Shown: piece after piece, positions 13,279-63,442 of the stretch
Numbering within the stretch: the stretch's first letter is position 1
How the letters are laid out: every line of letters starts with the position of its first letter
NCBI GenBank assembly: GCA_965261945.1
Contig: CBDHEF010000001.1
Coordinates: forward strand, 463,150-527,149
Reading direction: 5' to 3'
Source of the DNA: Dehalococcoidia bacterium
GTDB lineage: Bacteria; Chloroflexota; Dehalococcoidia; Lucifugimonadales; UBA3495
Length of the DNA stretch: 64,000 nt
The notes under the pieces: generated by a model
Seen by the model: the letters and a program-made list of their open reading frames with translations, nothing else
What the model was told of the DNA's origin: nothing
Database searches by the model: none
Made by a program: the position numbers and the translations under genes

Positions 13279-14273
13279 CCATCATGTTGCATCAGACCAC
13301 CTACATCATCACAGCCGAAACCACCCCCTTCCCCGCACAGCCAAGCCAGCACCAGCTCGATCTCGCCGCCGCCCAGGCGCGGCAGATCGCCCTCCAGGTC
13401 GTCGCCAATATGCCAGACGATCACCCCGCCTATCCCGAGACCCTGTCCCTCGGCGGCCGCTCCTACCGCTTCATCCAGGGCAACCTGAATACCAATCACG
13501 AGGTCTTCGCCGGCAAGCCCCCAGCCCACTGGCCACAGATGTCCATCCAGTTCTGGAGCCAGAACATCGGCGCCGCCAAGACCGAGCCCGTCCCCGACGA
13601 AGTCCTCCATAACTGCTGGAACCACACCGACAGCCTGATCACCCTGGCCCTGGAGCACCACGACACCCACCGGCTCCGCCCCTACCCCCAGATGATCATC
13701 ACCCCCGCCGACGACTGTCAGCACCACATGGGCTACCCCGACACGGACGTCTTCGACGACCCGGCCCCCGGGGGCACCGTCGCCCTCTACCTGAAAGGCG
13801 ACCCCGCAACCTCCCATCACCGGGCCATACAAGCACTCCGGGACATCGACGCCGCCTTCTTCCGCCGCGACTACCTCCAGACCCTGGCCTCCTTCCCCGG
13901 CCACATAGTCATGGAGATGGACTGGAATCTGCAGCAACACACAAAAGCACAAACCCTTCCAGGAGTCACCCAGTTGCCCTCCCGAAAAAACATATCAAAC
14001 CCGGACCGCCCCCTGAGCTACCCCGAGTTCCTCGAATGGAAACGCCAGTCCCTCACCGACAAGGGCGAACCCCTGCCCTTCCTCACGGAACAGCCACGCC
14101 CCTGGACCCACGGCGCCTGCGCCCACTGCGGGCAACCCCTGCCGAAAACGGCCCCCGCCTGCGCCACCTGCAACAACCGCCTCTGCACCGGCTGCAACCG
14201 CACCCACACCTCCACGTCCCGCTTCGTCACAGACCGGTTCCGCTGCCCGGTCCAACGGTTCATTACCAATTGA
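13275..14273 (+). CDS. hypothetical protein with C-terminal Cys-rich (zinc-ribbon-like) tail
   Basis: Inner ATG 13275 (MTIMLHQTTYIITAE...) of ORF 12666..14273. The C-terminus reads HGACAHCGQPLPKTAPACATCNNRLCTGCNRTH. It is translationally coupled to the previous ORF. Confidence 0.55.
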   Translation: MTIMLHQTTYIITAETTPFPAQPSQHQLDLAAAQARQIALQVVANMPDDHPAYPETLSLGGRSYRFIQGNLNTNHEVFAGKPPAHWPQMSIQFWSQNIGAAKTEPVPDEVLHNCWNHTDSLITLALEHHDTHRLRPYPQMIITPADDCQHHMGYPDTDVFDDPAPGGTVALYLKGDPATSHHRAIQALRDIDAAFFRRDYLQTLASFPGHIVMEMDWNLQQHTKAQTLPGVTQLPSRKNISNPDRPLSYPEFLEWKRQSLTDKGEPLPFLTEQPRPWTHGACAHCGQPLPKTAPACATCNNRLCTGCNRTHTSTSRFVTDRFRCPVQRFITN

Positions 14274-14298
14274 GAACACCCCCACGGAGGACCCGGCA

Positions 14299-15665: not shown

Positions 15666-15724
15666 CCGGCAACCCCGTTTCCAATGCCGGTTCGACACCC
15701 ACCCACCACCCAGGAGAGAAACGA

Positions 15725-16499
15725 GTGAACTTCATGATGCAGGCCACCGACAGACAGGTCTCCATAGTCGAAAACATCATCGGCAAACGCCTGACACCCA
15801 TCTCCATCAGCGGGTCCGGCTCCGTGGCCAACCACGACCACGGCCCCGCGGTACTGTCCCAACTCCGTGAGGACATCTCCCACACCACCGGCGTCACCGC
15901 CGATTCCATGACCAGATGGCAGGATCTCGACCGACAGGCCCAGAACGAGATAGCCCTGATCACAGCCGACTCCGCCCCGTGGGCCATGTACAAGCGCATT
16001 CACGACTCCGCCGCCGAGGACCTCTCCCCCGAGACCTACCAGAAGATCCTCGGCCCCCGCGGCCAGTGCCCCCCACCCCGGCCCGGAATCACCGGAACAC
16101 CAATCAGAAGGAAACACAATAACCACAAACAGAGAAACCCCGGCCTACCCCCAGGAGGACCTGGACGAGCTGCTCAAGCTCAGCCACGAGAACTCTTACC
16201 GCACCTACAGCATCTGCTCCAGGTTCGCCTCCGACATACGGGACGCCGTCGCCGCCCGCCGCGACCACACGGGCGTCGCCTTCCAGTGGCACAGCCACCT
16301 CGGACCCAGCGCCGAGGGCGCATCCTTCGGAAACGGCTGGGACGACTACCTCGGAGACCTCCGCCAGAAGGCCCAGAACGCCGTAGACCGGGCCGAAGCC
16401 GCCGACGGTCACGACCGCTACGAGCTGTTCCCCATCGCCAGACTCCACATCAACCTCTACCACGCCGCCGCCGCTCACCGCCTCGCCATCGAGCCCTGA
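15725..16499 (+). pseudogene. hypothetical protein, probably frameshifted
   Basis: The plausible N-part MNFMMQATDRQVSIVENIIGKRL...SPETYQKILGPRG becomes Arg/Pro-rich after ~16050. A start-less frame then reads ...PQEDLDELLKLSHENSYRTYSICSRFASDIRDAV...LYHAAAAHRLAIEP and stops at 16497-16499. C-rich runs at 16050-16080 are the likely slip site. Confidence 0.4.
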
Positions 16500-16687
16500 T
16501 TCCACAGGCAACCCAACCCGAATTGCGGCGGCTGCGGGAACAACTCCGCCGGGAAGCGCCGGAATAGCCAACAAACCGGGCCAACTCTCTTTTGTCCGGT
16601 TCGTGATTTACCTGTGTGAACTCCGTAACCAATTTTTCGGATATGCAATAATACTGTCTGCGACCAGATGGCTATTGGGAGGGTGAG

Positions 16688-17404
16688 ATGGCTTCTTTTT
16701 GGGAAACGATACTGGTGGAAGGCGAGGATATGCACGTCTATGCCAGCGTCCCCAGCGGCAGGGGTGGCGGGCCATTCCCGGCGGTGATTGTCAGCCAGCA
16801 CGGGGGCGGCGTGGACCAGTTCATCCGTGACATGGCCGACAACCTGGCCGCTGCCGGTTTCGCCGCCGTTGCGCCTAACCTGTTCCACCGCTTTACCGAG
16901 GAGCAACTGGACAACCGCACGGGACGCATCCAGCACCTGAGTGACCCGGAAATCGTCACCGACATAAACGCCACGGTGGACTGGCTCCGGGCGCATCCGG
17001 CCATCCAGGGCGACAACATCGGCATCACCGGCTTCTGCATGGGCGGTCGCGTAGCCTGGCTGGGAGCGGCCACCAACCGCCACATCAAGGCCTGCATACC
17101 CTACTACGGCGGCAACCTTTTCGTGCCCTGGGGCGCCGGCGAAAATACGCCATTCCAGTTGGCAGCGGGCATAAGTTGCCCCGTGCTGTTCCACTTCGGC
17201 GAAATCGACGAGAACCCGTCGCCGGCAGACCAGGAAAGGCTGGACGCAGAGTTGTCGCGGCTGGGAGTGGCGCACGAGTTCCACACCTACCCCGGCGCCG
17301 ACCACGCCTTTATGGACTATACCGGGCTGCGCCACCAACAGGAAGCGTCAGAAGCATCCTGGCCCCGAACCGTGGAATTCTTCACGGCGCATCTTATGGG
17401 GTAG
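16688..17404 (+). CDS. dienelactone hydrolase family protein
   Basis: GFCMGGR nucleophile motif and C-terminal YPGADHAF. SD GGGAGGGTGAG lies directly upstream of the ATG. Confidence 0.85.
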   Translation: MASFWETILVEGEDMHVYASVPSGRGGGPFPAVIVSQHGGGVDQFIRDMADNLAAAGFAAVAPNLFHRFTEEQLDNRTGRIQHLSDPEIVTDINATVDWLRAHPAIQGDNIGITGFCMGGRVAWLGAATNRHIKACIPYYGGNLFVPWGAGENTPFQLAAGISCPVLFHFGEIDENPSPADQERLDAELSRLGVAHEFHTYPGADHAFMDYTGLRHQQEASEASWPRTVEFFTAHLMG

Positions 17405-17462
17405 TCCTTCGGTTCCCTTCCTTGAGCAGTAAACTGACGAATGCAATGCAATAGGAGCGACT

Positions 17463-19007
17463 GTGAAATACGACTATGTCATCCTGGGCGCCGGATCCGC
17501 CGGATGTACGCTGGCCAGCCGCCTGTCGGAAGACCCGACCAAGAGTGTGCTGCTGCTGGAAGCGGGGCCGGACTACCCGGAATTCGAGATATATCCCGAC
17601 GACCTGAAGTTCGGTTACGACCAGACGGCCTCGGCCATCGACGCGCCGCACAACTGGTCCTTCCAGGGCAATACCACGGCGTTGCAGACCGAGCCGATGC
17701 CAGTGCCCCGCGGGCGGGTGGTCGGCGGCTCCAGCGCCATCAACGGCCAGGTGCTGTTGCGCGGCGTGCCCGAGGACTATGACGCCTGGGCCGCACTGGG
17801 CAACGACCAATGGGGGTTCACCAGCGTTTTGCCCTACCTGCGTAGGCTGGAAAGCGACATGGACTTCGGCGCCGACGACTTCCACAACTCCGAAGGTTTC
17901 ATCCCGGTGCGCCGTTTCGCGAAGGAGACCTGGCTGCCAGCGCAGCAGGCATTTTACAACGCCGCCCGCACCGCCGGGTTCCCCGACGATCCCGACATGA
18001 ATCACCCCGAGTCGGGCGGCGTCGGCCCCATCCCCATGAACAACCCCAACGGTGTGCGGATGAGCACCTCTCTGACCTTCCTCAGCGCCGCCCGGCACCG
18101 CCTAAACCTGACGGTCAAGGCCAACGTAACCGTGCATCGAGTGCTGTTCGAGGGCAACAAAGCCGTCGGCGCAGAGGTGGAGAGCGGCGACGAGAGGTTT
18201 ACCGTCGAAGGCGATCAGATTATTCTCAGCTCCGGGGCAATCGCGTCGCCGCAGATTCTGATGCTGTCGGGCGTGGGGCCTGCCGGAATCCTGAACGGCC
18301 TGGGCATCCCGGTAGTCCTCGAAGCGCCCGGCGTGGGGCAGAACCTGCGCGACCATCCCAACATCCGCGTTCCCATCGAGGTCAAGGAAGACTTCCCCTT
18401 GGACCCGAAGGACCCGCGCACCCAGGTGGCGTTGCGCTACACCGCCACCGGCTCCGACCTGCGCAACGACATCCAGATTATCGCATCGTCCTTCTCATCG
18501 CCCATCTCCGGCGACCCACTGGAGGCCGAGGGCATCCGCTTCACCGCCATTCTGGAGTTGGCCTACGGCAAGGGCCACATGAGGATTACCTCAACCGACC
18601 CCAACGTCCAGCCCGAGCTCAACTACAACTACTTCGCAGACGACTCCCGCGACCTGGCCCGGATGCGCGAGGCAGTGCGGCTGTGCGTGTCGTTCCTGGA
18701 CCACCCGGACTACGCCGACATCGTCAAGGGGCTGATAGAGCCGACCCCGGCCGACCTTGAGTCGGACGATGCCCTGGACAACTGGCTGATGCGCACCGTG
18801 TCAACCTCGCAGCACATCTCCGGCACCTGCAAGATGGGCACGGACAACGACCCGCTGGCGGTGGTGGACCAGCAATGCCGCGTCAAGGGGCTGGAAAACC
18901 TGCGGGTCATCGACGCCTCCGTGATGCCCGACTGCATCCGCGCCAACACCAACTGCACCACCATAATGATTGCCGAGCGGATGGCGGACATCATCAAAGG
19001 TGAGTAA
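17463..19007 (+). CDS. GMC-family (choline dehydrogenase-like) FAD oxidoreductase
   Basis: GTG start. YDYVILGAGSAGCTLASRLSED FAD-binding motif, GGSSAINGQV, and C-terminal HISGTCKMG...VIDASVMP. Confidence 0.9.
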   Translation: MKYDYVILGAGSAGCTLASRLSEDPTKSVLLLEAGPDYPEFEIYPDDLKFGYDQTASAIDAPHNWSFQGNTTALQTEPMPVPRGRVVGGSSAINGQVLLRGVPEDYDAWAALGNDQWGFTSVLPYLRRLESDMDFGADDFHNSEGFIPVRRFAKETWLPAQQAFYNAARTAGFPDDPDMNHPESGGVGPIPMNNPNGVRMSTSLTFLSAARHRLNLTVKANVTVHRVLFEGNKAVGAEVESGDERFTVEGDQIILSSGAIASPQILMLSGVGPAGILNGLGIPVVLEAPGVGQNLRDHPNIRVPIEVKEDFPLDPKDPRTQVALRYTATGSDLRNDIQIIASSFSSPISGDPLEAEGIRFTAILELAYGKGHMRITSTDPNVQPELNYNYFADDSRDLARMREAVRLCVSFLDHPDYADIVKGLIEPTPADLESDDALDNWLMRTVSTSQHISGTCKMGTDNDPLAVVDQQCRVKGLENLRVIDASVMPDCIRANTNCTTIMIAERMADIIKGE

Positions 19008-19046
19008 CAGCCGTTTCCCCCTCCTTTCCACAGGGGATTAGTCAAG

Positions 19047-19082
19047 TCCCCTCTCCCGCAGGGAGAGGGTTAGGGTGAGGGC
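19047..19082 (+). repeat. REP-like hairpin + G-rich tail (family A)
   Basis: tcccctctcccgcagggagagggttagggtgagggc. Confidence 0.8.
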
Positions 19083-19117
19083 AGCTCCCTCACCTCAAAC
19101 CCGGCCCTGTTGTTTAG

Positions 19118-19153
19118 CCCCCTCCTTTGTTAAAGTGGAAAGGAGGGGGTTTT
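19118..19153 (+). terminator. candidate intrinsic terminator / family-B hairpin
   Basis: ccccctccttt (19118-19128) pairs with aaaggaggggg (19139-19149), with a 10-nt loop, followed by TTTT. It lies downstream of the GMC oxidoreductase gene. Confidence 0.5.
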
Positions 19154-19193
19154 CATATCGCACATCCCCCGGTCCCTTGAGGAGGTGGCATCA

Positions 19194-29082: not shown

Positions 29083-29182
29083 CCTTGCGCCACGGCGTCG
29101 GCTGATGCGAAGAAGCCGAGCATGGCGAACATTATAGCCGCGACCCCACCGGATAGCCGCGACCCCACCGGGGTTCCGGTGA

Positions 29183-29710
29183 GTGGCGAGAGTTGCATTG
29201 ACCACATCCCAGGACAAATTCTGCGCCTCCTGCGCCACGCCATTGGAACAGCGGGAAGTCTTCGGCACGGAGCGGCCCGCTTGCCCCCATTGCGGACGGG
29301 TGGTGTTCTACGACCCGAAGGTCGCCGCCGTCTGCGTCATCGCCCGCGAAGGCCGGGTGCTCATGATTCGCCGCGCCACCGACCTCGGCTATGGCCTGTG
29401 GAGTCTGCCCGGCGGCTTCGTAGACCGGGGAGAGGTCGTGGAATCGGCCGCTGCCCGCGAGGCCCGGGAGGAAACGGGACTGGAAGTAACCGTAACCGGA
29501 CTGCTCGGCCTCTTCTCCCTCCCCGGCGACCCGGTAATCGTCGTCGCCTTCACCGCCCGCGAGACCGGAGGCGCCCTCGCGCCTGGCCCCGAAGCGCTGG
29601 AAACCGCCTTCTACCCGCCCGACGCGCTCCCGGAACTCGCCTTCACCCGCGACACAGAAATCCTGTCACTCTGGCAGAGCAAGTCCCCTCCCCCTCATGG
29701 GGAGGGTTAG
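29183..29710 (+). CDS. NUDIX hydrolase with N-terminal zinc ribbon
   Basis: CASC...CPHCG followed by the NUDIX box GGFVDRGEVVESAAAREAREETGL. The last 9 codons and the stop lie inside a REP element. Confidence 0.8.
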   Translation: MARVALTTSQDKFCASCATPLEQREVFGTERPACPHCGRVVFYDPKVAAVCVIAREGRVLMIRRATDLGYGLWSLPGGFVDRGEVVESAAAREAREETGLEVTVTGLLGLFSLPGDPVIVVAFTARETGGALAPGPEALETAFYPPDALPELAFTRDTEILSLWQSKSPPPHGEG

Positions 29711-29720
29711 GGTGGGGGGG
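29682..29720 (+). repeat. REP-like hairpin + G-rich tail (family A)
   Basis: aagtcccctccccctcatggggagggttagggtggggggg. Confidence 0.8.
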
Positions 29721-30460: not shown

Positions 30461-30465
30461 GTGTT

Positions 30466-30497
30466 CCCTCTCCCTCCGGGGGAGGGTTCGTGGGCGA
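30466..30497 (+). repeat. REP-like hairpin, degenerate tail (family A)
   Basis: ccctctccctccgggggagggttcgtgggcg. Confidence 0.6.
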
Positions 30498-33651: not shown

Positions 33652-34047
33652 CTATTCCTGCTGCGGCGAGCCGGCTGGCGGCGGCACACGAAAGATGACC
33701 CCTCCGTCCGGTGCGTGCGAGTGCGAAATGAAGGCGTCGGTCAATCGCCGGATTTCCGCCATGGTCTCGGCGTGCTGGGCGTCGGCGCGCTCCCGCGCTT
33801 CTCTGAATTGGCCTTCGGCCCACTCCCGCAACTCCCTGTAGCGATCTTCGGTGCGTTCCCGCGCTTCCGCGTGTTGGGCCTCGGTGCGTTCCCGCAACTC
33901 CCTGTACCGATCGTCAGATCGTTCCCGTCCGGCCTTGACTTCGCCTTCCAAATGGCCAAGACGCAGATAGACCGGACCAACCAGGCCCAGAACCGTAACT
34001 AAGGCAACCGACACCGAGGCAAAAGCGGCTATCGTAGGGGCATCCAT
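33652..34047 (-). CDS. small membrane-anchored coiled-coil protein with internal repeats
   Basis: N-terminal TM segment AAFASVSVALVTVLGLVGPVY, then repeated ER(S/T)(D/E)DRYRELRE(R/W).E.Q..EARER units. The repeats are also visible in the DNA at ~33790-33915. Confidence 0.55.
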   Translation of the reverse strand: MDAPTIAAFASVSVALVTVLGLVGPVYLRLGHLEGEVKAGRERSDDRYRELRERTEAQHAEARERTEDRYRELREWAEGQFREARERADAQHAETMAEIRRLTDAFISHSHAPDGGVIFRVPPPAGSPQQE

Positions 34048-38298: not shown

Positions 38299-39609
38299 TT
38301 ACAGCCGCCGGTTGTCTACGACGCGGGCGGCCTTGCCCTCGCTGCGGGGCAGTTGCCGGGGCGCAACTACCTCGACGCGGCAGCCGACTCCCAGGCTGCT
38401 CTGCAACGACTCGGCCAACGACTCGGCCAACGACTGCCCGGCAGCGGATATGCCGATGCCAACGCGATGCAATTCCTCCGACGCTTCCACCCGGACAGTC
38501 AACTCGTCCATGCGCGAATCACCCCGCTCCAAGAGAAGCTCGTAGTGCGGCTCCAGCCCCTCCGTCCGAAGTAGCACGGTCTCAATTTGCGAGGGAAAGA
38601 CGTTGACGCCGCGAATAATAAGCATATCGTCGGTACGGCCCAGGGGTTTGCTCATCCGGGCCGTGGTGCGCCCGCAGCCGCACTGCCCTCGCTCAAGACA
38701 GGTCAGGTCGCCGGTACGGTAGCGCAGCAGAGGCAACGCCTCCTTGGTAACGCAGGTCAGCGTCAACTCGCCGGTATCCCCATCAGCAAGAGGCTCGCCG
38801 GTGTTCGCATTGATGACTTCCGGGATAAAGTGATCTTCGGCCAGATGCAGGCCCTCTTTCGCGGGGCATTCCATCGCCACCGCCGGCCCCATCACCTCGG
38901 ACAGGCCGTAGATGTCGAGGGCCGTGATGCCCAGCCGCGCCTCGATCTCCACCCGCATCTCTTCCGACCACGGCTCCGCGCCGAAGACGCCCAGCCGCAG
39001 CCGTCCCAAGTCGGCGCCCATTTCCGCCGCCTGCTCGGCGATAAGCAGCGAGTACGATGGAGTGCAGCAAAGAACAGTTGCGCCGAAGTCCTGCGCAAGC
39101 TCCACCTGCCGCCGTGTGTTGCCCGCCGACACCGGCACCACCGTCGCTCCCATACGCTCGCCGCCGTAATGCAGCCCCAGCCCGCCGGTGAACAGCCCAT
39201 AGCCATAGGCGACGTGAATGACGTCATTCCGGTCAGCCCCCGCAATGCTCAGGGCACGAGCCGCCAGATCGGCCCAAACGGCGATGTCATTGGCGGTGTA
39301 GCCCACCACCGTCATCTTGCCGGTCGTCCCGCTGGAAGCGTGAACCCGCACCACCTCGCTCATGGGAACTGCGAACAGCCCGTAGGGATAGTTGTCGCGC
39401 AGGTCCTGCTTGACGGTGAAGGGCAGCCGGGCCAGGTCGTCCGGCGATCGTATGTCCTCCGGCGCGATGCCCGCCGTGCCCAGCTTCTCGCGGTAGAAGG
39501 GGACGCGCCCGGCGACGCGCTCCACGCAGGCGCGCAGGCGCTCCGTCTGCAAAGCGGCCATCTTATCCCGCGAAATAAGCTCCACCGGGTCCCGAAGCGG
39601 ACTGTCCAA
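38299..39609 (-). CDS. phenylacetate-CoA ligase-like adenylate-forming enzyme
   Basis: VHASSGTTGKMTVV P-loop, PaaK-like N-terminus (LQTERLRACVERV...VPFYREKL), and C-terminal GKAARVVD. TTG 39609 has GAGGGGGG 7 nt upstream and is preferred, because ATG 39708 would overlap the divergent Uma2 gene. Confidence 0.8.
   Translation of the reverse strand: MDSPLRDPVELISRDKMAALQTERLRACVERVAGRVPFYREKLGTAGIAPEDIRSPDDLARLPFTVKQDLRDNYPYGLFAVPMSEVVRVHASSGTTGKMTVVGYTANDIAVWADLAARALSIAGADRNDVIHVAYGYGLFTGGLGLHYGGERMGATVVPVSAGNTRRQVELAQDFGATVLCCTPSYSLLIAEQAAEMGADLGRLRLGVFGAEPWSEEMRVEIEARLGITALDIYGLSEVMGPAVAMECPAKEGLHLAEDHFIPEVINANTGEPLADGDTGELTLTCVTKEALPLLRYRTGDLTCLERGQCGCGRTTARMSKPLGRTDDMLIIRGVNVFPSQIETVLLRTEGLEPHYELLLERGDSRMDELTVRVEASEELHRVGIGISAAGQSLAESLAESLQSSLGVGCRVEVVAPRQLPRSEGKAARVVDNRRL
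38404..38439 (-). repeat. 12-bp tandem repeat (x3, third imperfect) inside the PaaK-like gene
   Basis: caacgactcggc caacgactcggc caacgactgccc; encodes the (AESL)n stretch near the C-terminus, in frame. Confidence 0.85.
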
Positions 39610-53670: not shown

Positions 53671-53761
53671 GCTATTACACTCCTAAACTAACACTTACCG
53701 CGATGCCGTAATTATAGCCCCCATGCCCGTTCGATGCCAACGAATGCCTGCCAGCGCCCAA

Positions 53762-54582
53762 GACGATTGCAAAGTTGCGGAGGGACGATTGCAAAGTTGC
53801 GGAGGTAAGTATACAAAGACAGGGAAGTGAGATATGGGAGTGTGCGGATATGGAGGCGGCGGAATCTCTGTTCGGATGTTTGGAGCAGGCGCCGGATCCC
53901 AGGAGGGCCAGATGGGTCAGACATCCCTTTCAGGCCATCCTCCGGCTGACCCTGCTGGGCTTGGCTTGTGGTCAGACCAACATGGCCCACATCGCCCTCT
54001 TCGCCAGGATGCACTGGCCAGAACTGAAGGAGCCTTTGGGCTTTGTGCGGGACCATCCGCCCCACGCCACCACCATCTCCCGCGCCCTGGCCGGAGTCTC
54101 CTGTGAGCAGTTGCAGGGCGCCCTGACGGGGTGGGTGGCCCGGGTGGTGGCGGACCAGGATGTGAACGCCTCGGTGGACGGCAAGTGGGCCAGGCAGTCC
54201 GAGGACGGCAACGGCAATCCCCTGGTGATGGTGAACGTGCTGGCCCACGACCTGAAGCTGTGCCTGGCCCAGTGGCCGGCATCGGAGAAACGGCGCGAAC
54301 CCGGGGTGTTGCGGGAACAACTGGGGCCACTGTTCGAGCGCTATCCCGGTCTGAAACTGCTGACCATGAACGCTCTCTATGCGGAGCGGGACTTGTGCCA
54401 GGCCATCGTGAGCCACGGACGGGACTACCTGGTGCGCATCAAGGGGAACCAACGCCCTGCGCCCGGCAGGATGGTTTCCCATCCGGATGTCCATGCCCCT
54501 GCGAGCCAGGACCTGCGCCTTCCGCCCGACCCAGACCATCGCCCGCCTCCGCGGCCAAATCTCCTGACTTTGCAATCGTCCC
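53762..54582 (+). mobile_element. ISAs1-family element, internally deleted (~0.8 kb) with both IRs
   Basis: IR gggacgattgcaaagt at 53782-53797, with its reverse complement at 54567-54582. The left end is a perfect 22-bp tandem duplication (gacgattgcaaagttgcggagg x2, 53762-53805). The transposase N-half starts at ATG 53850: LEQAPDPRRARWVRHPFQAILRLTLLGLACGQ...SVDGKWAR...DYLVRIKGNQ. It then runs into unrelated sequence. Confidence 0.7.
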
Positions 54583-54666
54583 GCCGCCACTCCAGCAACG
54601 CTTGACGCCCCTTCGCCTGCGTCTCTACAATCGCTTTGGCCATATTGACCGGGATGCGATGATATT

Positions 54667-55902
54667 TTGCCTGTGAATTCACCCCATGAGGGCGCCCTTC
54701 TGCCTCCGTACCGCGTTCTGGACCTGAGCGGCCCGGAGGCGGTGTTCTGCGGCAAACTGCTGGCCGACTACGGGGCCGACGTGGTGCGGGTGGAGCCGCC
54801 CGGCGGGGACTCATCCCGTGCCCGGGCGCCATTTGTTGGGGACGAAGAGGGGCCGGAACGCAGCCTATACTTTCTCTTCTACAACACCAACAAACGTGCC
54901 ATAACCCTCGATTTGGAATCAGAGCGGGGACGGGAGTTATTCCGGCGTTTGGCGGCTCAGGCAGACGTGATTGTGGAGAGCTTTCCTGTCGGATTCATGG
55001 AGTCGCTGGGGTTGGGATACGATGCTTTGCGCCTGATCAATCCCGGTATCGTGATGGCGTCGGTTACGCCCTTCGGCCAGACCGGGCCGTGGAAGGACTA
55101 CAAGTCTTCCGACCTGATTGCCCTCGCCGCCAGCGGGTTCATGCAAATAACCGGCGAACCCGACGGGCCACCGATGCGGCAAGGCAACGACCAATCGCAC
55201 TTTCCGGGAGCGCAATTCGCCGCCGCGTCCATCCTGGCGGCCCTGTATCACCGCGACTTCGGCAATGGCGAGGGACAGCACATCGACGTGTCGTTGCAGG
55301 AAGCGCTGATCACCTACTACACCGACGCGCATCCCGCCCTCGCCTGGGAGCTGCTCGGCCAGAACGTCACCCGCGTCGGGGCCACTTCGACGCTGGTTAT
55401 TCCGCTGGGCGCCTACCCCAGCGCCGACGGCTGGATTTCCGCCGGAATCATCACCCCCCGCGAGTGGGATACGCTGGCCGAGTGGATTTACGAGGTCACC
55501 AGCAACGAAGAAGTGCTGAACGACGCCTATCGCGGCGGCAATCAGGACCGGGCGCCCTACAACGACATAATCACCGCGCTGGTCATAGACTTTACTACCC
55601 GTTTCACCAGCGAGTACCTGTTCCATGAGGGCCAACGCCGAAACTTGGTGTTCATCCCGGTCAACACAGTCTCCGACCTGCTGGCCGACCCCCAGCTCGA
55701 GGCCAGCAACTTCTGGTTCGGCCTCGACCATCCGGAGACCGGAACGCTCCAGTATCCGCTGGGCGTGTTTGACAGCGAGGAGGTCTCACCGGCCGCCAAC
55801 CCGGCCCCCCGGCTGGGGCAGGACAACAACGCCATCTACGCCGGCGAGCTGGGCCTGTCAGCAGAAATTTTGGAATCGCTGCGCCACGACGGAGTAATCT
55901 AA
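54667..55902 (+). CDS. family III CoA-transferase
   Basis: YRVLDLSGPEAVFCGKLLADYGADVVRVEPPGG. TTG/GTG start. Confidence 0.9.
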   Translation: MPVNSPHEGALLPPYRVLDLSGPEAVFCGKLLADYGADVVRVEPPGGDSSRARAPFVGDEEGPERSLYFLFYNTNKRAITLDLESERGRELFRRLAAQADVIVESFPVGFMESLGLGYDALRLINPGIVMASVTPFGQTGPWKDYKSSDLIALAASGFMQITGEPDGPPMRQGNDQSHFPGAQFAAASILAALYHRDFGNGEGQHIDVSLQEALITYYTDAHPALAWELLGQNVTRVGATSTLVIPLGAYPSADGWISAGIITPREWDTLAEWIYEVTSNEEVLNDAYRGGNQDRAPYNDIITALVIDFTTRFTSEYLFHEGQRRNLVFIPVNTVSDLLADPQLEASNFWFGLDHPETGTLQYPLGVFDSEEVSPAANPAPRLGQDNNAIYAGELGLSAEILESLRHDGVI

Positions 55903-55913
55903 AGACTATCCTA

Positions 55914-55953
55914 AAACTCCCTCTCCCCCTGGGAGAGGGCTGGGGTGAGGGCG
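55914..55953 (+). repeat. REP-like hairpin + G-rich tail (family A)
   Basis: aaactccctctccccctgggagagggctggggtgagggcg. Confidence 0.8.
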
Positions 55954-55995
55954 TCCCCAGAGGGCGAGAAGGCCGTTTCTCTAGGCGGAAATTTA

Positions 55996-57219
55996 ATGAA
56001 AGAAAAAGCGTTGGCAGGCATCCGGGTGCTGGAATTGGGGCCTTACGTGGCCCTGCCCCTGACCGGGCGCATCCTGGCATCCCTAGGCGCCGAGGTCATC
56101 AAAGTCGAGACCAACAAGGTTCTGGACGAGATGGCCTTCATCCCCGCCTGGTCGAGAGGAGCGGGTCAGCCCGACTTCCAGCGGGCCAAGAAACGTGTGT
56201 CCATTGACGTGCGCACTCCCGGCGGCCTTGAGGTGTTCCGGGAACTGGTCAAGGTCAGCGACGTGTTCATGACCAACTTCCGGCGCAACATCCTCGACCG
56301 ATGGGGCATAGACTTCCCGGCGGTCAGGGAACTACGCCCTGACATCATCCTGATGTGGCAGACCGGGCTGGGCGGCATCGGGCCGTACTACACCTACAAG
56401 TCTTACGGGATCCTGGTGCAGCACATGGGCGGGGTGTCGCTGATGACCGGCGACGAGGGAGAGCCGCCCTCGGCCATTAACACCTCCTATTCCGACTACC
56501 ACACCGGAGTGTTCCAGCCGTCGGCCATCATCGGCGCGTTGATGCGGCGGCGGATGACCGGGCTGCCCGCAACCATGGAGTCGTCGATTTTCAAGTCCGG
56601 CGCGGTTACCGCCGGGCCTGCCATCCTTGACTTCCAGGTCAGCGGGCGGATGCCGCAGCGCATAGCCAACCGCAGTACCGAAAGCGCCCCCCAAGGCGTT
56701 TATCAATGCCAGGGTGATGACCGTTGGTGCGCCATCGCGGTGCAGAACGAAGAGCAGTGGACCGGGTTCTGCCGCGTCCTGGGCAACCCCGGCTGGTGCG
56801 ATGAGCCTGACTTCACCACCGTCGGGAGCAGGCTGGCCAACCAGGACAGGCTGGATGCGCTTATCGGCGAGTGGACGGCGCAGCAGAAAGCGGATGACGT
56901 GATGGAGCGGATGCAAGCCCAGGGCGTCCCGGCCAGCATTGTTTCGCAGGGCGACGACCTGTACGCCAGCGAACATTTGAAGGCGCGTGATTTCTACCGC
57001 CCCTCTCCCTACTACGTGGCCGAACGGGGTACCCCGGCCTGGGAATGGGAGAAGCGCGACAGTCTGGCGTGGACTACGCCGGCGAGGCTCTCGGAAACGC
57101 CGATGGAGTTCGGGCATTACAGCAATGTTGGCGAGGACAACGACTATGTGTTCCGTGAAGTGCTGGGTATGCCTGAGTCCGAGATTGAATCGCTCATGGA
57201 AAGCGGGGCCCTTTACTGA
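55996..57219 (+). CDS. family III CoA-transferase
   Basis: Inner ATG 55996: MKEKALAGIRVLELGPYVALPLTGRILASLGAEVIKVE. Confidence 0.9.
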   Translation: MKEKALAGIRVLELGPYVALPLTGRILASLGAEVIKVETNKVLDEMAFIPAWSRGAGQPDFQRAKKRVSIDVRTPGGLEVFRELVKVSDVFMTNFRRNILDRWGIDFPAVRELRPDIILMWQTGLGGIGPYYTYKSYGILVQHMGGVSLMTGDEGEPPSAINTSYSDYHTGVFQPSAIIGALMRRRMTGLPATMESSIFKSGAVTAGPAILDFQVSGRMPQRIANRSTESAPQGVYQCQGDDRWCAIAVQNEEQWTGFCRVLGNPGWCDEPDFTTVGSRLANQDRLDALIGEWTAQQKADDVMERMQAQGVPASIVSQGDDLYASEHLKARDFYRPSPYYVAERGTPAWEWEKRDSLAWTTPARLSETPMEFGHYSNVGEDNDYVFREVLGMPESEIESLMESGALY

Positions 57220-57238
57220 ACGGTGAATCGCCAGGGGA

Positions 57239-57276
57239 CGCCCTCACCCTAACCCTCTCCCAGAGGGAGAGGGAAC
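57239..57276 (-). repeat. REP-like element, reverse orientation (family A)
   Basis: cgccctcaccctaaccctctcccagagggagagggaac. Confidence 0.8.
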
Positions 57277-57297
57277 TTTCTTTCCGGGATATTTGAA

Positions 57298-58098
57298 ATG
57301 GTTGATTACAGCGGCTATCAGGACTTGCTGATCGAGAAAAACGACGGCATCGCCCTTCTGACGATGAACCGCCCGGAGGTGTTCAACGCCACCGGGTTCG
57401 CGCTGCACAACGAACTCTCGCGGGTGTGGCTGGACCTGGGGCAGGACCCGGAGGTGCGGGTTGCAGTCATCACCGGCGCGGGCAACGCCTTCTCCGCAGG
57501 CGGCGATTTCGACATGATCGAGCAGTCCATCGGCAACGCCGAGGTCATCGCCGGCACCATGCAGGAAGCTCGCGACATCGTTCACAACATGATCAACCTG
57601 GACAAGCCGGTCATCTCGGCCATCAATGGCGTCGCCGTAGGCGCAGGGCTTGCGGTGGCGCTGCTGGCCGACATCTCGATAGCGTCGGAGCGGGCGCGTT
57701 TCACCGACGGCCACGTGCGCCTGGGCGTCGCCGCGGGCGGCCACGCCGCGGTCATCTGGCCGTTGCTCATCGGCATGGCCAAGGCCAAGTATTACCTGTT
57801 GACCTGCGAGTTTATGGACGGCGCGGAGGCGGAACGGCTGGGGCTGGTCAGCCTGGTGGTGCCTCACGACGAACTGATGGAGCGGGCGATGGGGGTGGCC
57901 CGCAAGCTGGCCTCCGGCTCCCAGCCCGCCCTGCGCTACACCAAGCGTTCGCTGAATCAGTGGCTCCGCATGGCGGAGCACACCGCCTTCGACTACTCGC
58001 TGGCCCTCGAAATGCTCAACTTCTTCGGCCCCGACGTCCGCGAGGGGCTGGATTCCGTCCGCCAGAAGCGCGACCCGGACTTCCCGTCGGCGCGTTAG
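57298..58098 (+). CDS. enoyl-CoA hydratase/isomerase family protein
   Basis: [38 protein letters not shown]. Confidence 0.9.
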
Positions 58099-58583
58099 GG
58101 CCGCGTCATCACAACCGCCAGCGCCACCACTGCCAGCGCCAGCAGCAGGTTGACGCGCGCCGCCCACTGAACAAACAGCCGCGCCGGGCCGGTGGGCAGC
58201 GGCGCGCCGGACGACCGGGCCGCTTCCAGCCGGTCCATCATCCGCGGCCCCAGCCAGAAGTCGTGGGCCAGACTGAGCAGTATCACGATGATGAACAGCC
58301 CGGTTTTCATCTGGAGATACTGGACAAAGTGGCTGTCTCCGCCGAAGAATGTTTCTGGCCGGATGCCCCATTGCGTCCAGGCCAGGTAGCCCCCGGTGAC
58401 CGCCAGCACGACCATCGAGGCCCAGGCCACCGGCACGAACTTCTTGGCCGCGTCGCGCAGCACAGCGAACCCCACCCCGGTGTCTCTGCGGGCCAGCGGC
58501 GCCATCACCATGGACAGGAACAGCATCCCGCCCAGCCAGGTTATGGCGGATATGACGTGGATGTAGACGATGGCTTGGTACAT
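58095..58583 (-). CDS. integral membrane protein (CopD-like?)
   Basis: Four hydrophobic segments. The N-terminal MYQAIVYIHVISAITWLGGMLFL resembles CopD/DUF-type membrane proteins; the family is uncertain. Confidence 0.55.
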   Translation of the reverse strand: MYQAIVYIHVISAITWLGGMLFLSMVMAPLARRDTGVGFAVLRDAAKKFVPVAWASMVVLAVTGGYLAWTQWGIRPETFFGGDSHFVQYLQMKTGLFIIVILLSLAHDFWLGPRMMDRLEAARSSGAPLPTGPARLFVQWAARVNLLLALAVVALAVVMTRP

Positions 58584-58607
58584 CTTCTGTTGCCTTTGCC
58601 TCCGGCT

Positions 58608-58650
58608 TTCACCCTCACCCTAAACCCTCTCCCTCAAGGGAGAGGGGATT
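58608..58650 (-). repeat. REP-like element, reverse orientation (family A)
   Basis: ttcaccctcaccctaaaccctctccctcaagggagaggggatt. Confidence 0.8.
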
Positions 58651-58680
58651 TGCGGGGGCTTCGTCCATTGAGGGGGATTT

Positions 58681-59775
58681 TCAGGAAAGCCAGGGTATGT
58701 CTTCGGGCAGGTAGTGGGTAGCGCGGAAAACTCGGTTGACCAGTTGGTTTTCCATGTCCACGTGGAAATGGGGGTTGATGAATTCCCAGACCACTTCGCC
58801 CTCGGTCGTTACTTGGAACATCCGCCCGAACTGCCCCTCAGTGATGAGGGTGTTGCCGTTGGACAGGCGGCGCGCTCCCGAAATGTATGCGCTGAAGAAA
58901 TTGTACGCCGGGTTGTCGCGGTATTCCCAGACAATTTCGTTGGTTGCCGGATTGACTTCAATCACCCTGGAAAATGGCAGGCCAGTATCGCGACGGTGCG
59001 ATCCGTTGTCGAAAATCAGCACGTTGCCGTTGGGCAGCATATTCGGGTCGTGCTGCTGGGCCAGAGTTTCGTAGCCCAGCTCCCATACTATGTCGCCGCT
59101 GGCCTTGTCCACCATGCCAACGGTGGAGATGTTGCGGAAGCTGAACAGCACCCGGTCGCCAGGCACCGGCGAGAGGGTATTGCCGTGGCTCCACTCGTCG
59201 CGCAGGTCGTTATGGGTGACAATGTGCTTATCCACGTCGAGATGCTCGGCGGCGCGCCATTCCCACACTCTGTTGCCGTTTGCGTCCACTTCGACAAGCA
59301 CGTCGGCCCACATCCCTTCCGGCGCTGAACCCGGGATGCCGCCCTGCACCTTCGATGCCAGGGACGGAGCCATCGGCTCGACTGCCATGTACAGCGCACC
59401 GCCCGATTCCGTCCGGCGGGCGTCGTGGTGGTGGTCGGGGTCGCGGTGCTCCCAGACCACGTTGCCGCCGGGATCGACTTCGAGCATCACGCCGCCCTTG
59501 AACCGCTTCCACGACGGGAAACGCTCCCAGGTCTCGTCCCTGACCTTGCCGCCGTAGAACAGGTTTCCGTTGGGCAGCAGGTAGCCGTACAGCCCCGGCG
59601 GGTGGGGCATCGCCCACTGGTGGGCCACATTGCCTTCCATGTCTACCAGGTACACATCACCGGGGCTGGCCATGGGCGTGTACAGCACATAGCCGGGGCA
59701 GGCCCTGTCCGGGTCGAAGGCGGTCAGGCCAGTGCGGGCCATCCGGCGGCGCGTCTGCTGGTCAACGGTGGTCAT
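58681..59775 (-). CDS. arylsulfotransferase (ASST)-like beta-propeller protein
   Basis: Inner ATG 59775 with GAGAGGTGA upstream. Repeated LPNGN/NGNTL blades, HGNTLSP, QHDPNMLPNGNVLIFDNG. Confidence 0.75.
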   Translation of the reverse strand: MTTVDQQTRRRMARTGLTAFDPDRACPGYVLYTPMASPGDVYLVDMEGNVAHQWAMPHPPGLYGYLLPNGNLFYGGKVRDETWERFPSWKRFKGGVMLEVDPGGNVVWEHRDPDHHHDARRTESGGALYMAVEPMAPSLASKVQGGIPGSAPEGMWADVLVEVDANGNRVWEWRAAEHLDVDKHIVTHNDLRDEWSHGNTLSPVPGDRVLFSFRNISTVGMVDKASGDIVWELGYETLAQQHDPNMLPNGNVLIFDNGSHRRDTGLPFSRVIEVNPATNEIVWEYRDNPAYNFFSAYISGARRLSNGNTLITEGQFGRMFQVTTEGEVVWEFINPHFHVDMENQLVNRVFRATHYLPEDIPWLS

Positions 59776-59849
59776 CTGTTCACCTCTCAGGCTGTTGACT
59801 TGGGTAGCGCCCCCTTGCAATCAACCGTCTCCCCGGAGGGAGCAGCGAC

Positions 59850-60617
59850 CTACTGCGCCACGTAGCCGCCGTCGACGGCCATGTTATGACCCGTGACGAA
59901 GCTGGCGGCGCCGGACGAAAGCCAGACCACGGCCTCGGCGATTTCCTGCGGTTCGCCCAGCCGGCCGATGGGGTGGCGGGAGACGACCGTCTCCTCCATC
60001 GTCTCGTACTGGTCGAACAGGGGCCGCACCAGCGGCGTGTTGATGTAGCCGGGACATACCGAGTTCACCCGGATGCCGTCGGCGGCGTATTCCAGGGCCG
60101 CGGCCTTGGTCAGCCCCACGACTCCGTGCTTGGCCGCCATGTAGGCCACCGAGCCGGGGGTGGCGATCAACCCCATGATCGAAGCGGTGTTGACGATGGC
60201 TCCGCTGCCCTGCTTGAGCATCTGCGGGATTTCGGCCTTCATCGAGAGCCAGACGCCCTTGAGGTTGATTCTGATTACCCGGTCGAAGTCTTCCTCTTCG
60301 TAGTCGGCGGAGCGTCGCCGCTCCCGCCCGCCCGAGATGCCGGCGTTGTTGAAGGCGCAGTCCAGGCTGCCAAAGGCCTCCACAGCCCGGTCAACCATCA
60401 GTTGCGTTCCGGCAGCGTCCGATACGTCGGCGTGGACCAGGATGGCCTGGCCGCCGGCCTCCACGATCATCTGCACCGTCTCCTCGCCTCCCTCCATGTT
60501 CATGTCCGCCACCACAACGCGAGCGCCTTCGCGGGAATAGACCAGCGAAGTCGCCCTTCCGATTCCGGAGCCGCCACCAGTTACCAGCGCCGTCTTGCCC
60601 TCAAGTTGTCCCGCCAT
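59850..60617 (-). CDS. SDR-family oxidoreductase
   Basis: TGGGSGIGRA, NNAG, YMAAKHGVVGL (YxxxK). Confidence 0.9.
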   Translation of the reverse strand: MAGQLEGKTALVTGGGSGIGRATSLVYSREGARVVVADMNMEGGEETVQMIVEAGGQAILVHADVSDAAGTQLMVDRAVEAFGSLDCAFNNAGISGGRERRRSADYEEEDFDRVIRINLKGVWLSMKAEIPQMLKQGSGAIVNTASIMGLIATPGSVAYMAAKHGVVGLTKAAALEYAADGIRVNSVCPGYINTPLVRPLFDQYETMEETVVSRHPIGRLGEPQEIAEAVVWLSSGAASFVTGHNMAVDGGYVAQ

Positions 60618-60688
60618 GCTTTCTTCTCCATCGGTGATAGTGTTGCAGATTATAACCGCCTTACCGTGCCGCGGGCAGGGTCTTTTAA

Positions 60689-61954
60689 GGGTCTTTTAAT
60701 TGTAGTAAAGGCTGCGGGGAGTGTTGGATAATTGGGATTAGAGTATTGGGAGTGGGGAGGACGGTTGTGTGGGAAGAGAGTGTTGGGGATTGGGGACCCG
60801 GACTGCCGGATGCCCTGAATGAGGTAGAGGATCCAATGAGGTAGAGGATCCCAGGAAGCCCAAAGGGGTACGCCATCCCTTGCCGGCGATTCTGGCCTTG
60901 GCGGTGTGCGCCATGCTCAGTGGCTCCAGGAGCCTTTACGCCATCGCCCAATGGGGCCGGACACCCCGAGTTTGCCCAGACGCTGGGGTTCAGCCGGCAG
61001 CGGACTCCATGCGCAGCCACCTTGCGTCACGTATTCCGGCGCATGGACGCGGAAGCCTTCGAGCCGGACTTGGGCCGCTGGGCCCGGGAGCGCCTGGGAG
61101 AGGGGGAGGCCACCATTGCCATAGACGGCAAAGCCCTGCGGGGTATCCACGGCGGTGAATTGCCCGGGGTGAGGGTGGTGGCGGCTTATGCGGGAGAGAG
61201 CGGCCTGGTACTGGGGCAAAAGGGGGGGCAGGGGGGATCGCAAGGAGAGCGAACCGGGGATGGCCTCGGGCTTGCTGGATCAACTGGAGTTGAAAAGGAA
61301 GGTGGTCACTGGGGATGCTCTGTACGCCCAGCGGGAGTTGAGCCGCAGCATCCTGAAGCGGGGCGGGGATTACTTATGGGGACTGAAGGACAACCAGCCC
61401 GGGGTGAAGGAGGCGGTGAGCTTGCTCTTTGAGCAGCCGTCTTGGGGTGAAAGATTTGCCTATGCGCACCAGGAGGGCCGGCACGGAGACCGGTGGGAAA
61501 GGAGGCGGTTGTGGCCGTCGACGGCTCTGAACGGTTACCTGGATTGGCCTGGCCTGGAGCAGGTCTGTTGCGTGGAACGGACCGGGTGGCACAAGGGCAG
61601 GGAGACGGTGGAGTGGGCCTGCGCCATCACCAGCCTGCCGCCGGAGTGTGCGGATGCTGCCCGGCTGCTGGAGATATGGCGGGGACACTGGGGAATTGAA
61701 AACCGGCTGCACTGGGTGCGGGACATGGTCTTTGGCGAGGAGCAAAGCCAGGTGCGGCCAGGTGCGAACGGAGCCGGCGCCGCAACTGCTGGCGGCGCTG
61801 CGGAACCTGGTGATCGGGATGTTGCGGCTGGGAGGGGTGAAAAACATAGCGGCGGCGCGGCGCCACTACGGCTGGAAACCCTGGTGGAAACCCTGGTGGA
61901 AACCCTGGGAGACGCTGACTCTCATCGGCCTCTCCAACCACAATTAAAAGGCCC
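60689..61954 (+). mobile_element. ISAs1-family element with multiply disrupted transposase
   Basis: IRs gggtcttttaattgt (60689-60703) and acaattaaaaggccc (61940-61954), 14/15 match. Transposase pieces lie in ORFs 60880.., 60920.., 61188.. and 61648.. (LNEVEDP..RHPLPAILALAVCAMLSGSRSLYAIAQWG; IAIDGKALRG; VVTGDALYAQRE...DYLWGLKDNQ; HWGIENRLHWVRD; LRNLVIGMLRLGGVKNIAAARR). Confidence 0.75.
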
Positions 61955-62023
61955 TAAACCAAAGCCAAGGTGGGATGTACATTTTGCGGACAGCCATTCG
62001 CAGTCAGGGTTCGCGCCTCGACC

Positions 62024-62052
62024 GTAGGGGCGGGTTTCAAACCCGCCCCTAC
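62024..62052. repeat. perfect GC-rich palindrome
   Basis: gtaggggcgggttt c aaacccgcccctac, between the two ISAs1 copies. Confidence 0.85.
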
Positions 62053-62257
62053 CAGATGGACCGCCCGTGCGCCGGCGAGTCCACCTGCAATGAAACGCTA
62101 CCTGGCATAAATGCGCATTTCACCTTGGATTTGGTTTAGTCCGGTTAACAGGGCAAACGCATTCTCTGGATAAAGGAGTAGAGTGGTACGATTAAAGCAG
62201 GAGACAGGAAAGCACAGGGTGGGGTGAAGCATGGGTAGTAGTGGGTGCGGCAGCTTG

Positions 62258-63442
62258 ATGGAGCATTTTGCCATTTGGAGGATTCCAGAAGGGATCAGGG
62301 GAAACGGCATTAACTATTGGACATTATTGCGATGACCATCTGCGCGGTCGTTGGGGGCGCTGAGGGTTGGGACGATGTGGAGTTGTTCGTCCAATGCAAG
62401 TACGAATGGTGTCCTGAGATTTCTGGATCTGCCCCACGGGGTTCCCTGCTCTGACACCTTTGCGCGGGTGTTCAGCGGCATTGACCCGGAACAGTTCCGA
62501 AACTGCATCATGGACTGGGTAAACAGCGTCAGCCAGCTGACTCAGGGCCAGGTGATTGCCCTGGACGGCAAGACCTTACGGCGGTCCCACGACCGCCCTT
62601 CGGGAAAGGCGGCCATTCACATGGTCAGCGCCCGGGCATCGGAGAACTCCCTGGTGTCGGGTCAGGTCAAAGTGGATGAGAAAACCAATGAGATCACGGC
62701 CATAGCGGAGTTGCTCAATCTGTTGGATGTGTCGGGCTGCATCGTGACAATTGACGCCGACAATTGACGCCATGGGCTGCCAGAAGAAGATAGCCCAGCA
62801 GATTGTGAGCCAGGAAGCCGATTATATTCTGGCAGTGAAGGAAAATCAGGGAAAGTTGCCGGAGGATGTGGCCGACCTGTTTTCCTGCGGACAGAGGACC
62901 GGGTTTGCTGATATACAGCGCGATTTCTGCCAGACCGTGAGCAGCGGGCGCGGACGCGCTGAAACCCGGCGCTGTTGGACCATTGACGATCCGGAGCAGT
63001 TATCCTACCTGGATACCCGAGGCGATTGGCCTGGGTTGCGGAGCATCGGGATGGTCGCGGCGCGACGATGTCAAGACGATGTCAAGGGGAACAGGTGCCG
63101 GAGGAAACCCGCTACTACATCTCCAGTCCTGAGTCGGATGCCCATCGATTCTTGCGGGCAACTCGAAGCCATTGGGGTATCGAGAACCGGGTGCGCTGGA
63201 TACTGGACGTGTCCTTCCGGGAAGACGAAAGCCGGGTAAGAACCGGAAACGCCCCGGAAAACCTCGCGATAGTCCGGCACATGGCCCTCAACCTGCTGCG
63301 CCAAGACCGAACCTCCAAAACCTCCATCAAAGCCAAACGCAAATTGGCAGGCTGGGACAACGACTACCTGCTGTCCATCCTCTCCAATCAGAATGCGGTA
63401 GCCCTGCCTGGAGTCGCTCTTGCGCCAGCGCGAGAGACTTGA
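62258..63442 (+). pseudogene. ISAs1-family transposase, multiply frameshifted
   Basis: MEHFA...; LLDIIAMTICAVVGGAEGWDDVELF; FLDLPHGVPCSDTFARVFSGIDPEQF; VIALDGKTLRRSHD; IVTIDAMGCQKKIAQQI..DYILAVKENQ; YYISS...SHWGIENRVRWILDVSFREDESRVRTGNAPENLAIVRHMALNLL. The pieces are spread over three frames. Two of the breaks are tandem duplications at 62746-62771 and 63064-63085. Confidence 0.8.

Follow-up and report, generated by a model that had tools for sequence, protein, structure and literature searches.

Short perfect tandem duplications in and around dead ISAs1-family insertion sequences of a Dehalococcoidia genome

The stretch studied here, called the window, is a 64,000-nucleotide piece of contig CBDHEF010000001.1 from a soil Dehalococcoidia bacterium (GenBank assembly GCA_965261945.1, positions 463,150 to 527,149 of the forward strand). 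It contains three insertion sequence (IS) copies of the ISAs1 family, all of them dead, which lie at the two edges of an IS-bounded island of ~9.7 kb. Our subject is a set of perfect head-to-tail tandem duplications (TDs) in the assembled sequence, of which seven lie within the three IS copies and four elsewhere in the window. These TDs are derived, specific to individual copies and generally without junction microhomology, and they are far commoner than in the control genomes we sampled. We regard the finding as a mutational signature and not as a new genetic system. The three IS copies are the following:

53759 to 54583, plus strand: IS copy 1, ISAs1 family, 825 bp, ends CAAGACGATTGCAAAGT...ACTTTGCAATCGTCCCG (Pfam and alignment to relatives)
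60676 to 61956, plus strand: IS copy 2, ISAs1 family, 1281 bp, ends CAGGGTCTTTTAATTGTAG...CAATTAAAAGGCCCTA (Pfam and alignment to 20 relatives)
62149 to 63406, plus strand: IS copy 3, ISAs1 family, 1258 bp, ends CAGGGCAAACGCATTCTC...GAATGCGGTAGCCCTG (Pfam and alignment to the copy in related locus L036)

For the domain search the transposases were rebuilt by removing the TDs and bridging the other lesions. Copies 2 and 3 matched both DDE_Tnp_1_assoc and DDE_Tnp_1 (E = 1e-19 and 2e-15 for copy 2, 5e-28 and 3e-21 for copy 3), and copy 1, in which the catalytic C-terminal half is deleted, matched DDE_Tnp_1_assoc alone. This architecture fits the ISAs1 identity that a previous sequence-only reading had assigned to all three elements. 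Each copy has terminal inverted repeats (CA(A/G)GACGATTGCAAAGT / ACTTTGCAATCGTCC(C/T)G in copy 1, CAGGGTCTTTTAATTG / CAATTAAAAG(G/A)CCCT(A/G) in copy 2 and CAGGGCAAACGCATTC / GAATGCGGTAGCCCTG in copy 3), and the lengths are typical of the family (~1.2–1.5 kb), with copy 1 shortened by its deletion. We collected relatives by scanning the copy-2 protein against one genome per species, which gave 36 loci, nearly all from Dehalococcoidia metagenome-assembled genomes (MAGs) and many from complete 3.4–5 Mb chromosomes; the best identity to the copy-2 protein among them was 85%. The relatives of copy 1 in L006, L002 and L024 are full length, 85–92% identical and flanked by 10-bp target-site duplications, and those of copy 2 carry target-site duplications of 9–10 bp (clean in L003, L007, L011 and L016). 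Copy 3 is 79% identical to the copy in L036. By their domains, their CAGG(G) ends, the 9–10 bp target duplications of their relatives and the ~1.25 kb length of both full-length copies, these are normal members of ISAs1. Unlike typical members, none of the three window copies is active or has a target duplication: copies 1 and 2 have no such duplication around them, and none was seen by eye in the flanks of copy 3. The missing duplications fit a later rearrangement, given the break in synteny at copy 1 described below, and do not speak against membership of ISAs1. A degraded target-site duplication at copy 1 was considered and rejected, as the right flank does not continue the ancestral sequence of the related contig L055.

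Perfect TDs of period at least 10 bp (100% unit identity) were sought in the window with Tandem Repeats Finder (TRF) and with a separate exact scan. Both recovered all seven arrays that the sequence-only reading had described in the IS copies, at 100% identity:

53762 to 53805: 22 bp x2, copy 1, IS positions 4–25 (left inverted repeat), junction homology 0 nt
60677 to 60699: 11 bp x2 plus 1 nt, copy 2, IS positions 2–12 (start of the left inverted repeat), junction homology 1 nt
60818 to 60851: 17 bp x2, copy 2, breaks the frame (LNEVEDPMR-stop), in 0 of 20 relatives
61747 to 61766: 10 bp x2, copy 2, frameshift after HWGIENRLHWVRD, in no relative
61873 to 61908: 12 bp x3, copy 2, in frame WKPWWKPWWKPW (WKPW x3), a 24-bp insertion compared with all relatives
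62746 to 62771: 13 bp x2, copy 3, breaks TIDAMGCQ to give TIDADN-stop, not in L036
63064 to 63086: 11 bp x2 plus 1 nt, copy 3, frameshift, not in L036

Other lesions in copies 1 and 2 are:

54450 to 54457: junction of a ~415-bp internal deletion in copy 1, found by alignment, with endpoints that share the microhomology CAAC
60960 to 60961: 2-nt deletion, private to window copy 2 and the sole indel there that is not a TD

Locally shuffled sequence gave an expectation of ~0.02 such arrays in the 9.3-kb region against the seven found, so the claimed excess over chance holds. Translation of the raw and the TD-removed sequence reproduced the coding consequences as they had been described, although the count of periods that are not multiples of 3, given as five of the seven, has to be corrected to six. 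The two terminal TDs had been placed exactly at the left terminus; they do lie near the left end, but neither begins at the first IS base, since the one in copy 1 starts at IS position 4 (the IS begins at C53759) and the one in copy 2 at position 2 (the IS begins at C60676). When the elements were compared with other ISAs1 copies, each TD was an insertion relative to every related copy. In copy 2, alignment with 20 relatives showed that the left-end 11-bp TD and the 17-, 10- and 24-bp insertions are all private to the window copy. The TDs are therefore derived and specific to individual copies. They also make up 7 of the 11 indel lesions in the three copies: copy 1 carries the 22-bp TD and the large deletion, and copy 3, compared with L036, carries two TDs, indels of a single base at two places (−1 nt near 62271 and +1 nt near 62411) and a stop codon (TAA at 62311–62313). 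Removing the TDs restores much of the transposase frames, ~250–300 codons in copies 2 and 3.

The whole window contains eleven perfect TDs of period at least 10 bp, and the four outside the IS copies (12–19 bp) comprise two intergenic and two in-frame arrays. For part of this region a relative was available in contig L055, which was found by a homologue search with phenylacetate-CoA ligase and is syntenic with window positions 28,284–53,757 at 91.4% nucleotide identity. The four arrays are:

29134 to 29171: 19 bp x2, divergent intergenic spacer, single-copy in 91%-identical L055
30428 to 30459: 16 bp x2, intergenic, 12 bp past a comF-like stop codon
37365 to 37400, plus strand: 18 bp x2, in frame (VWRLFR x2), C-terminal end of a frameshifted Uma2-like gene that has no L055 counterpart
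38404 to 38435, minus strand: 12 bp x2.67, in frame inside an intact phenylacetate-CoA ligase, adds SLAE, in 0 of 15 homologues

None of these four breaks an otherwise intact gene, an outcome with a chance of ~0.03 under random placement by our estimate, and the large genes of the window run uninterrupted. A test of gene breakage by spanning open reading frames (ORFs) was uninformative in this GC-rich DNA, which has long spurious ORFs in all frames. We therefore judged coding flanks by a noisy classifier of codon-position GC phase, calibrated on random positions, and with it the frame-breaking TDs fell in IS or IS-like DNA. Among the non-IS events with clearly coding flanks in the related loci, the frame was kept five times and broken once; compared with the 1:2 expected at random this 5:1 ratio gives p ~0.02 in our binomial calculation, which assumes that the five frame-keeping periods are multiples of 3, and p ~0.1 without L021, whose 16 bp is not.

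We compared the frequency of TDs with that in other genomes. The 36 related loci hold 68 TDs of period at least 10 bp in 730 kb, or 46 in ~700 kb once L035 of genome OZ253476 is left out of the counts; this locus is filled with repeat arrays, which at 6677–19192 are dense, built on GCCGGAATGACGGAG and CGCGGGAATGACGAG motifs, and have periods of 18–41 and up to 5 units. The controls gave no perfect TD of such period in Sinorhizobium pSymB (200 kb), in E. coli K-12 (100 kb) or in Shigella pCP301 (200 kb), which is crowded with partial IS copies, and a single one in a Ralstonia megaplasmid (100 kb). For periods of 10–22 bp, we counted 52 TDs in 763 kb of Dehalococcoidia DNA, and the GC-matched controls and E. 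coli, together 400 kb, had 1 (odds ratio 27 and p = 7e-9 by Fisher's test); overall the density is ~25-fold that of the control genomes sampled. Locally shuffled sequence predicts ~1.6 perfect TDs of period at least 10 bp in 763 kb. Distant metagenome contigs held three TDs in ~100 kb; a metagenome scan with RecN found relatives at 44% identity or below only, and was used merely as a rough extra sample.

The junctions of the TDs were then examined by measuring how far the repeat runs past whole units. Among 49 events, 51% had no such junction homology, 24% had 1 nt, 10% had 2 nt and 14% had at least 3 nt, where random segments are expected to give 56%, 28%, 10.5% and 5%, respectively. The distribution equals the random expectation. 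In the window itself 10 of the 11 TDs have 0–1 nt, the exception being the array at 38404 with 8 nt, and thus arms of 3–4 nt or more are generally lacking. In contrast to the TDs, the ~415-bp deletion in copy 1 does use microhomology. TD sizes are roughly flat between 10 and 19 bp, with one at 22 bp and very few longer; for periods below 8 bp the chance background hides any signal. Arrays of more than two units occur at 61873 in the window (x3) and in L002, L027 and L028 (x4–x5). No motif was found at the TD boundaries.

The copy-2 type of IS allowed us to look at the indel spectrum of a single element. Its 21 copies contain 13 insertions of at least 6 bp (6–179 bp), which are essentially all TDs or array expansions and are spread along the whole element, and three deletions of that size. 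Bacterial pseudogenes show a comparable neutral decay of dead genes, and there, too, about half of the insertions create direct repeats; however, deletions outnumber insertions (ratio 0.79) and few indels exceed 15 nt (Danneels et al. 2018, PMC6054270). In the copy-2 type the balance is reversed, with 13 insertions to 3 deletions, and eight insertions exceed 15 nt. Three copies of one genome, OZ250156 (L011, L028 and L030), share a 17-bp and an 8-bp TD, and L011 has an intact 10-bp target-site duplication. TD-bearing copies must thus have been propagated, which argues that the TDs are real sequence. The shared 17-bp TD, TGCGAGCCAGGAGGGCC, lies at 10561–10863 in L028, at 10633 in L011 and at 10668 in L030. 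In L028 five units are now present, along with nested 37-bp repeats (+179 bp), and this site is a local hotspot of array expansion following a first duplication. We also considered GGAAACCCTG x2, present in L023, L024 and L029, as a recurrent TD at the WKPW site, but it is a native near-repeat perfected by a G-to-A change and was excluded.

We consider it probable that the TDs arise by a spontaneous process of short duplication that has no need of microhomology, turns over fast and is visible only in unconstrained DNA, so that the IS lesions would reflect the neutral decay of dead elements. The class looks like a general mutational habit, unusually common in the source genome and several relatives, and not like an IS-specific device. 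In the scheme we propose, a stretch of 10–22 bp would be copied head to tail with no need of microhomology at its flanks; as its route we favor either staggered breaks that are filled in and rejoined, or a nascent strand that realigns on minimal pairing. Once two perfect units are present, slippage could add or drop units, and this would explain the x3 array here and the x4–x5 arrays in relatives. Selection would then purge TDs from functional sequence, such that the survivors would lie in dead IS, in spacers, or in frame at tolerant protein sites. What we infer in this scheme is that the mutations are neutral, that the arrays turn over fast, and how the first duplication is made biochemically; rapid gain and loss of units, which would make divergence between units rare, is suggested by two things, the missing excess of diverged TDs and the occurrence of arrays with three to five units.

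Among the three explanations offered by the sequence-only reading, relaxed selection exposing a genome-wide mutational bias is the one best supported, in view of the four non-IS window TDs at tolerated positions, the 46 TDs in ~700 kb of relatives against 1 in 600 kb of controls, and the TD-dominated insertions in the 21 copy-2-type copies. Replication-slippage-prone DNA in its classical form is not supported, given the random junction homology. A transposition or repair footprint finds no support as a general explanation, although it may apply to the two left-end TDs. One known system in line with end-filling is bacterial Ku/LigD joining, in which, according to mycobacterial studies, a 5' overhang can be filled in and blunt-joined so that it is duplicated with no need of microhomology; the size of the duplication is bounded by the spacing of nicks that still lets the ends fall apart. 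Junctions independent of microhomology are indeed what we see here. However, the Sinorhizobium and Ralstonia controls, both of which we take to encode Ku/LigD, are almost without TDs, and we know of no genome-wide signature of this pathway.

A number of observations pull against the reading of the TDs as a general, neutral habit, and we weighed them together with the two alternatives that they bear on most. One is that the TDs are absent from the cells and were added during the joining or polishing of long reads, above all where IS DNA is repeated. Every TD is perfect, and those with 1–2 mismatches show no excess over control levels; besides rapid turnover, a lack of diverged TDs would also fit an artefact or a recent burst. 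The TD-rich sequences are mostly long-read MAG contigs, all the controls are finished isolate genomes, and assemblies differ strongly in TD density: in two related genomes whose multi-copy IS are intact there are ~2 TDs in 252 kb compared with ~44 in 440 kb for the others. Housekeeping DNA of relatives in synteny with the CoA-ligase region (~104 kb, Illumina scaffolds included) contains 2 TDs only. No independent assembly of the source contig was found for comparison; exact-protein look-ups with the short-chain dehydrogenase/reductase (SDR), the enoyl-CoA hydratase and P0001 of the window matched no record. Against an artefact, however, the placement of the TDs is non-random. No non-IS window TD breaks an intact gene, the two coding ones are 12 and 18 bp, the large window genes are uninterrupted, and related loci show the same bias towards keeping the frame. 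Moreover, intact multi-copy IS copies in genome OY761541 have no TDs, the same two TDs recur in the three copies of OZ250156, and perfect TDs are also present in the Illumina-based metagenome contigs L059, L047, L048 and L049. Non-random placement, TDs shared by propagated IS copies and TDs in Illumina data form the main argument against an artefact, which we think quite unlikely. The scarcity of TDs in housekeeping DNA nevertheless means that the elevated rate is established only for the window and for the IS-flanking, junk-rich loci of several genomes; there the excess is secure, and we do not extend it to every relative or to constrained DNA. The other alternative is damage linked to the transposase, in which abortive ISAs1 cleavage at ends or end-like sites would leave staggered breaks whose fill-in makes TDs as an IS by-product. 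Of the seven IS TDs, two begin 1–3 nt in from a left IS end, relative L002 has a third such TD within the terminal inverted repeat of another ISAs1 element, and IS DNA has ~2 TDs per kb, ~4–5 times the rest of the non-coding DNA of the window (p ~0.02, a rough estimate from an approximate intergenic tally). Furthermore, 3 of the 11 window units (GACGATTG at 53762, GACAATTG at 62746 and GACGATGT at 63064) begin with GACRAT, the core of the copy-1 inverted repeat, but this start motif is at most weakly significant after correction for the search (P = 0.15, 0.017 and 0.14 for word lengths 6, 7 and 8) and we rejected it. The overlap of two of seven TDs with an inverted repeat has a chance probability of ~0.04–0.08 by our calculation, and ~30 intact relatives have no terminal TD. 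In addition, four window TDs and most of those in related loci are outside any IS, the sites extend along the whole element, and TD lengths of 10–22 bp differ from the 9–10 bp staggered cuts of these IS types. A general origin in transposase damage thus seems to us improbable.

Two further accounts concern how duplications of this size could form or be left behind. Classical microhomology-mediated duplication would proceed by slippage, or by faulty processing of Okazaki-fragment flaps, between short direct repeats. Failure of flap processing, in yeast rad27 or in E. coli mutants of the Pol I 5'-nuclease, makes short TDs flanked by 3–12 bp direct repeats a dominant mutation class; short TDs are likewise prominent here, but they lack flanking direct repeats. 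Microhomology-mediated tandem duplications (MTDs), reportedly first described in fission yeast, are like our TDs in being perfect, head to tail, from ~8 bp upward and, in coding sequence, subject to a selection filter; they are also unstable and able to expand to at least 3 units, behavior that the x3–x5 arrays and the lack of diverged TDs may reflect here. According to a recent preprint, which claims the process to be universal, microhomology-mediated duplication is dominant across life, and yeast rad27 (flap processing) is linked to such duplications (bioRxiv 10.64898/2026.02.28.708716). It gives the size, reversibility and expansion to at least three units as hallmarks, of which the size and the larger arrays are seen here. 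The 8-nt homology of the array at 38404 and the 14% of events with at least 3 nt against 5% expected also agree with this account, and the preprint's 50–60% of microhomology-free cases among perfect TDs of reference genomes resembles our 51%. However, the same preprint reports at least 3 nt of microhomology in ~70% of new events, and only 13% of new and 25–30% of recently fixed TDs without it, whereas the junctions here are random and the density is raised over the sampled controls. Decay of a former arm is unlikely because the units are still identical, and we consider this account unlikely. The remaining suggestion is that each TD is a target-site duplication left after precise excision of an inserted mobile element. 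Such a remnant would be perfect and free of microhomology, and three TDs are 10–11 bp long, near the 9–10 bp duplications of these IS types. The lengths, however, are spread roughly evenly over 10–19 bp plus the one at 22 bp where a fixed stagger would give a single size, arrays of 3–5 units occur, and the boundaries share no target motif. We know of no excision in the ISAs1 family that leaves the duplication intact, and we regard this account as very improbable.

A bolder version of the favored reading, which we put forward as possible but doubtful, is a lineage-specific process in some soil Dehalococcoidia that makes microhomology-free TDs of 10–22 bp at a rate comparable to other indels, gives an insertion-biased spectrum and is a main route of IS death; a still stronger version, in which the process is preferentially triggered at IS ends, is less likely. 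Our literature search yielded nothing on Dehalococcoidia rich in TDs and nothing on bacterial end joining as a source of TDs. If the TDs are real and their rate is truly elevated, this uncultured lineage would be an example in nature of dead DNA that decays mostly through short tandem duplication and not through deletion. An insertion-biased indel spectrum, if true, would run contrary to the deletion bias regarded as general in bacteria, and it would bear on why some free-living bacteria keep large, repeat-rich genomes, as well as on the birth of tandem repeats without microhomology. It would also point to an unusual replication or break-repair repertoire, searchable in public complete genomes. 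Gene callers and pseudogene finders misread such genomes unless the TDs are recognized, and if the TDs were artefacts, they would be worth knowing as a fault of one class of long-read MAGs.

One frame change in copy 2 is not one of its private lesions:

61217 to 61238, plus strand: A4-G7 run, +1 frame switch of the transposase, common to all relatives

A frameshift near 61230 had to be considered as a lesion of copy 2 and was ruled out, as ~30 relatives share it. All ~30 Dehalococcoidia copies (L001–L030) switch frame by +1 at an A4-G6/7 run (…GLVLGQKGG / (V)RGDRKESELGMAS…), where the frames would be joined by a +1 shift or by loss of one mRNA nucleotide. The Dehalococcoidia copies of this type therefore lack the one long transposase frame of ISAs1, and a Planctomycetia relative from an Illumina assembly has a single frame of 380 aa. 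Either recoding at a conserved site or a homopolymer error that recurs systematically in long-read MAGs would account for the split, and we found no record of a recoding site for ISAs1.

The setting of the IS copies was compared with L055. Synteny stops at 53757, two bases before copy 1, where L055 runs on into rpsU; in the window the IS-bounded block 53759–63420 (~9.7 kb) follows and then dnaG, with no rpsU between. This block looks like an island that was inserted or rearranged. Its cargo includes genes for an enoyl-CoA hydratase and a short-chain dehydrogenase, two CoA-transferase-like genes, a beta-propeller-like ORF and a gene for a small membrane protein. Four segments of the window are missing from L055 (36859–37443, 39593–40317, 41500–43784 and 47992–50019) and look like small strain-specific indels, the rest of the region being collinear. 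The segments without an L055 counterpart include the frameshifted Uma2-like gene, an intact Uma2-family gene and an AAA_21/AbiEii-like ATPase gene.

Other repeats were also noted in the window. Between copies 2 and 3 lies an element resembling a miniature inverted-repeat transposable element (MITE):

61954 to 62139: MITE-like element, 186 bp, with 19-bp terminal inverted repeats (CTAAACCAAAGCCAAGGTG), read from the sequence

Its end sequence recurs in at least 10 related loci, and it is thus a member of a widespread element family in these genomes. Directly after genes, at about 55917–55960, 57236–57280, 58605–58650, 29685–29720 and 30465–30490, there are GC-rich palindromic repeats CCCTCTCCC...GGGAGAGGG with adjoining GGTGAGGG or CCCTCACC, which look like a family of intergenic repeats of the repetitive extragenic palindrome (REP) kind. 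A 36-bp piece at 57238–57273 matches L055 exactly, at an unrelated site. Finally, an imperfect 33-bp x3.2 repeat with 68% matches lies at 33824–33927 within a minus-strand ORF and encodes heptad-like units of the RERTE(D/A)(R/Q)…REL type, an older in-frame tandem array.

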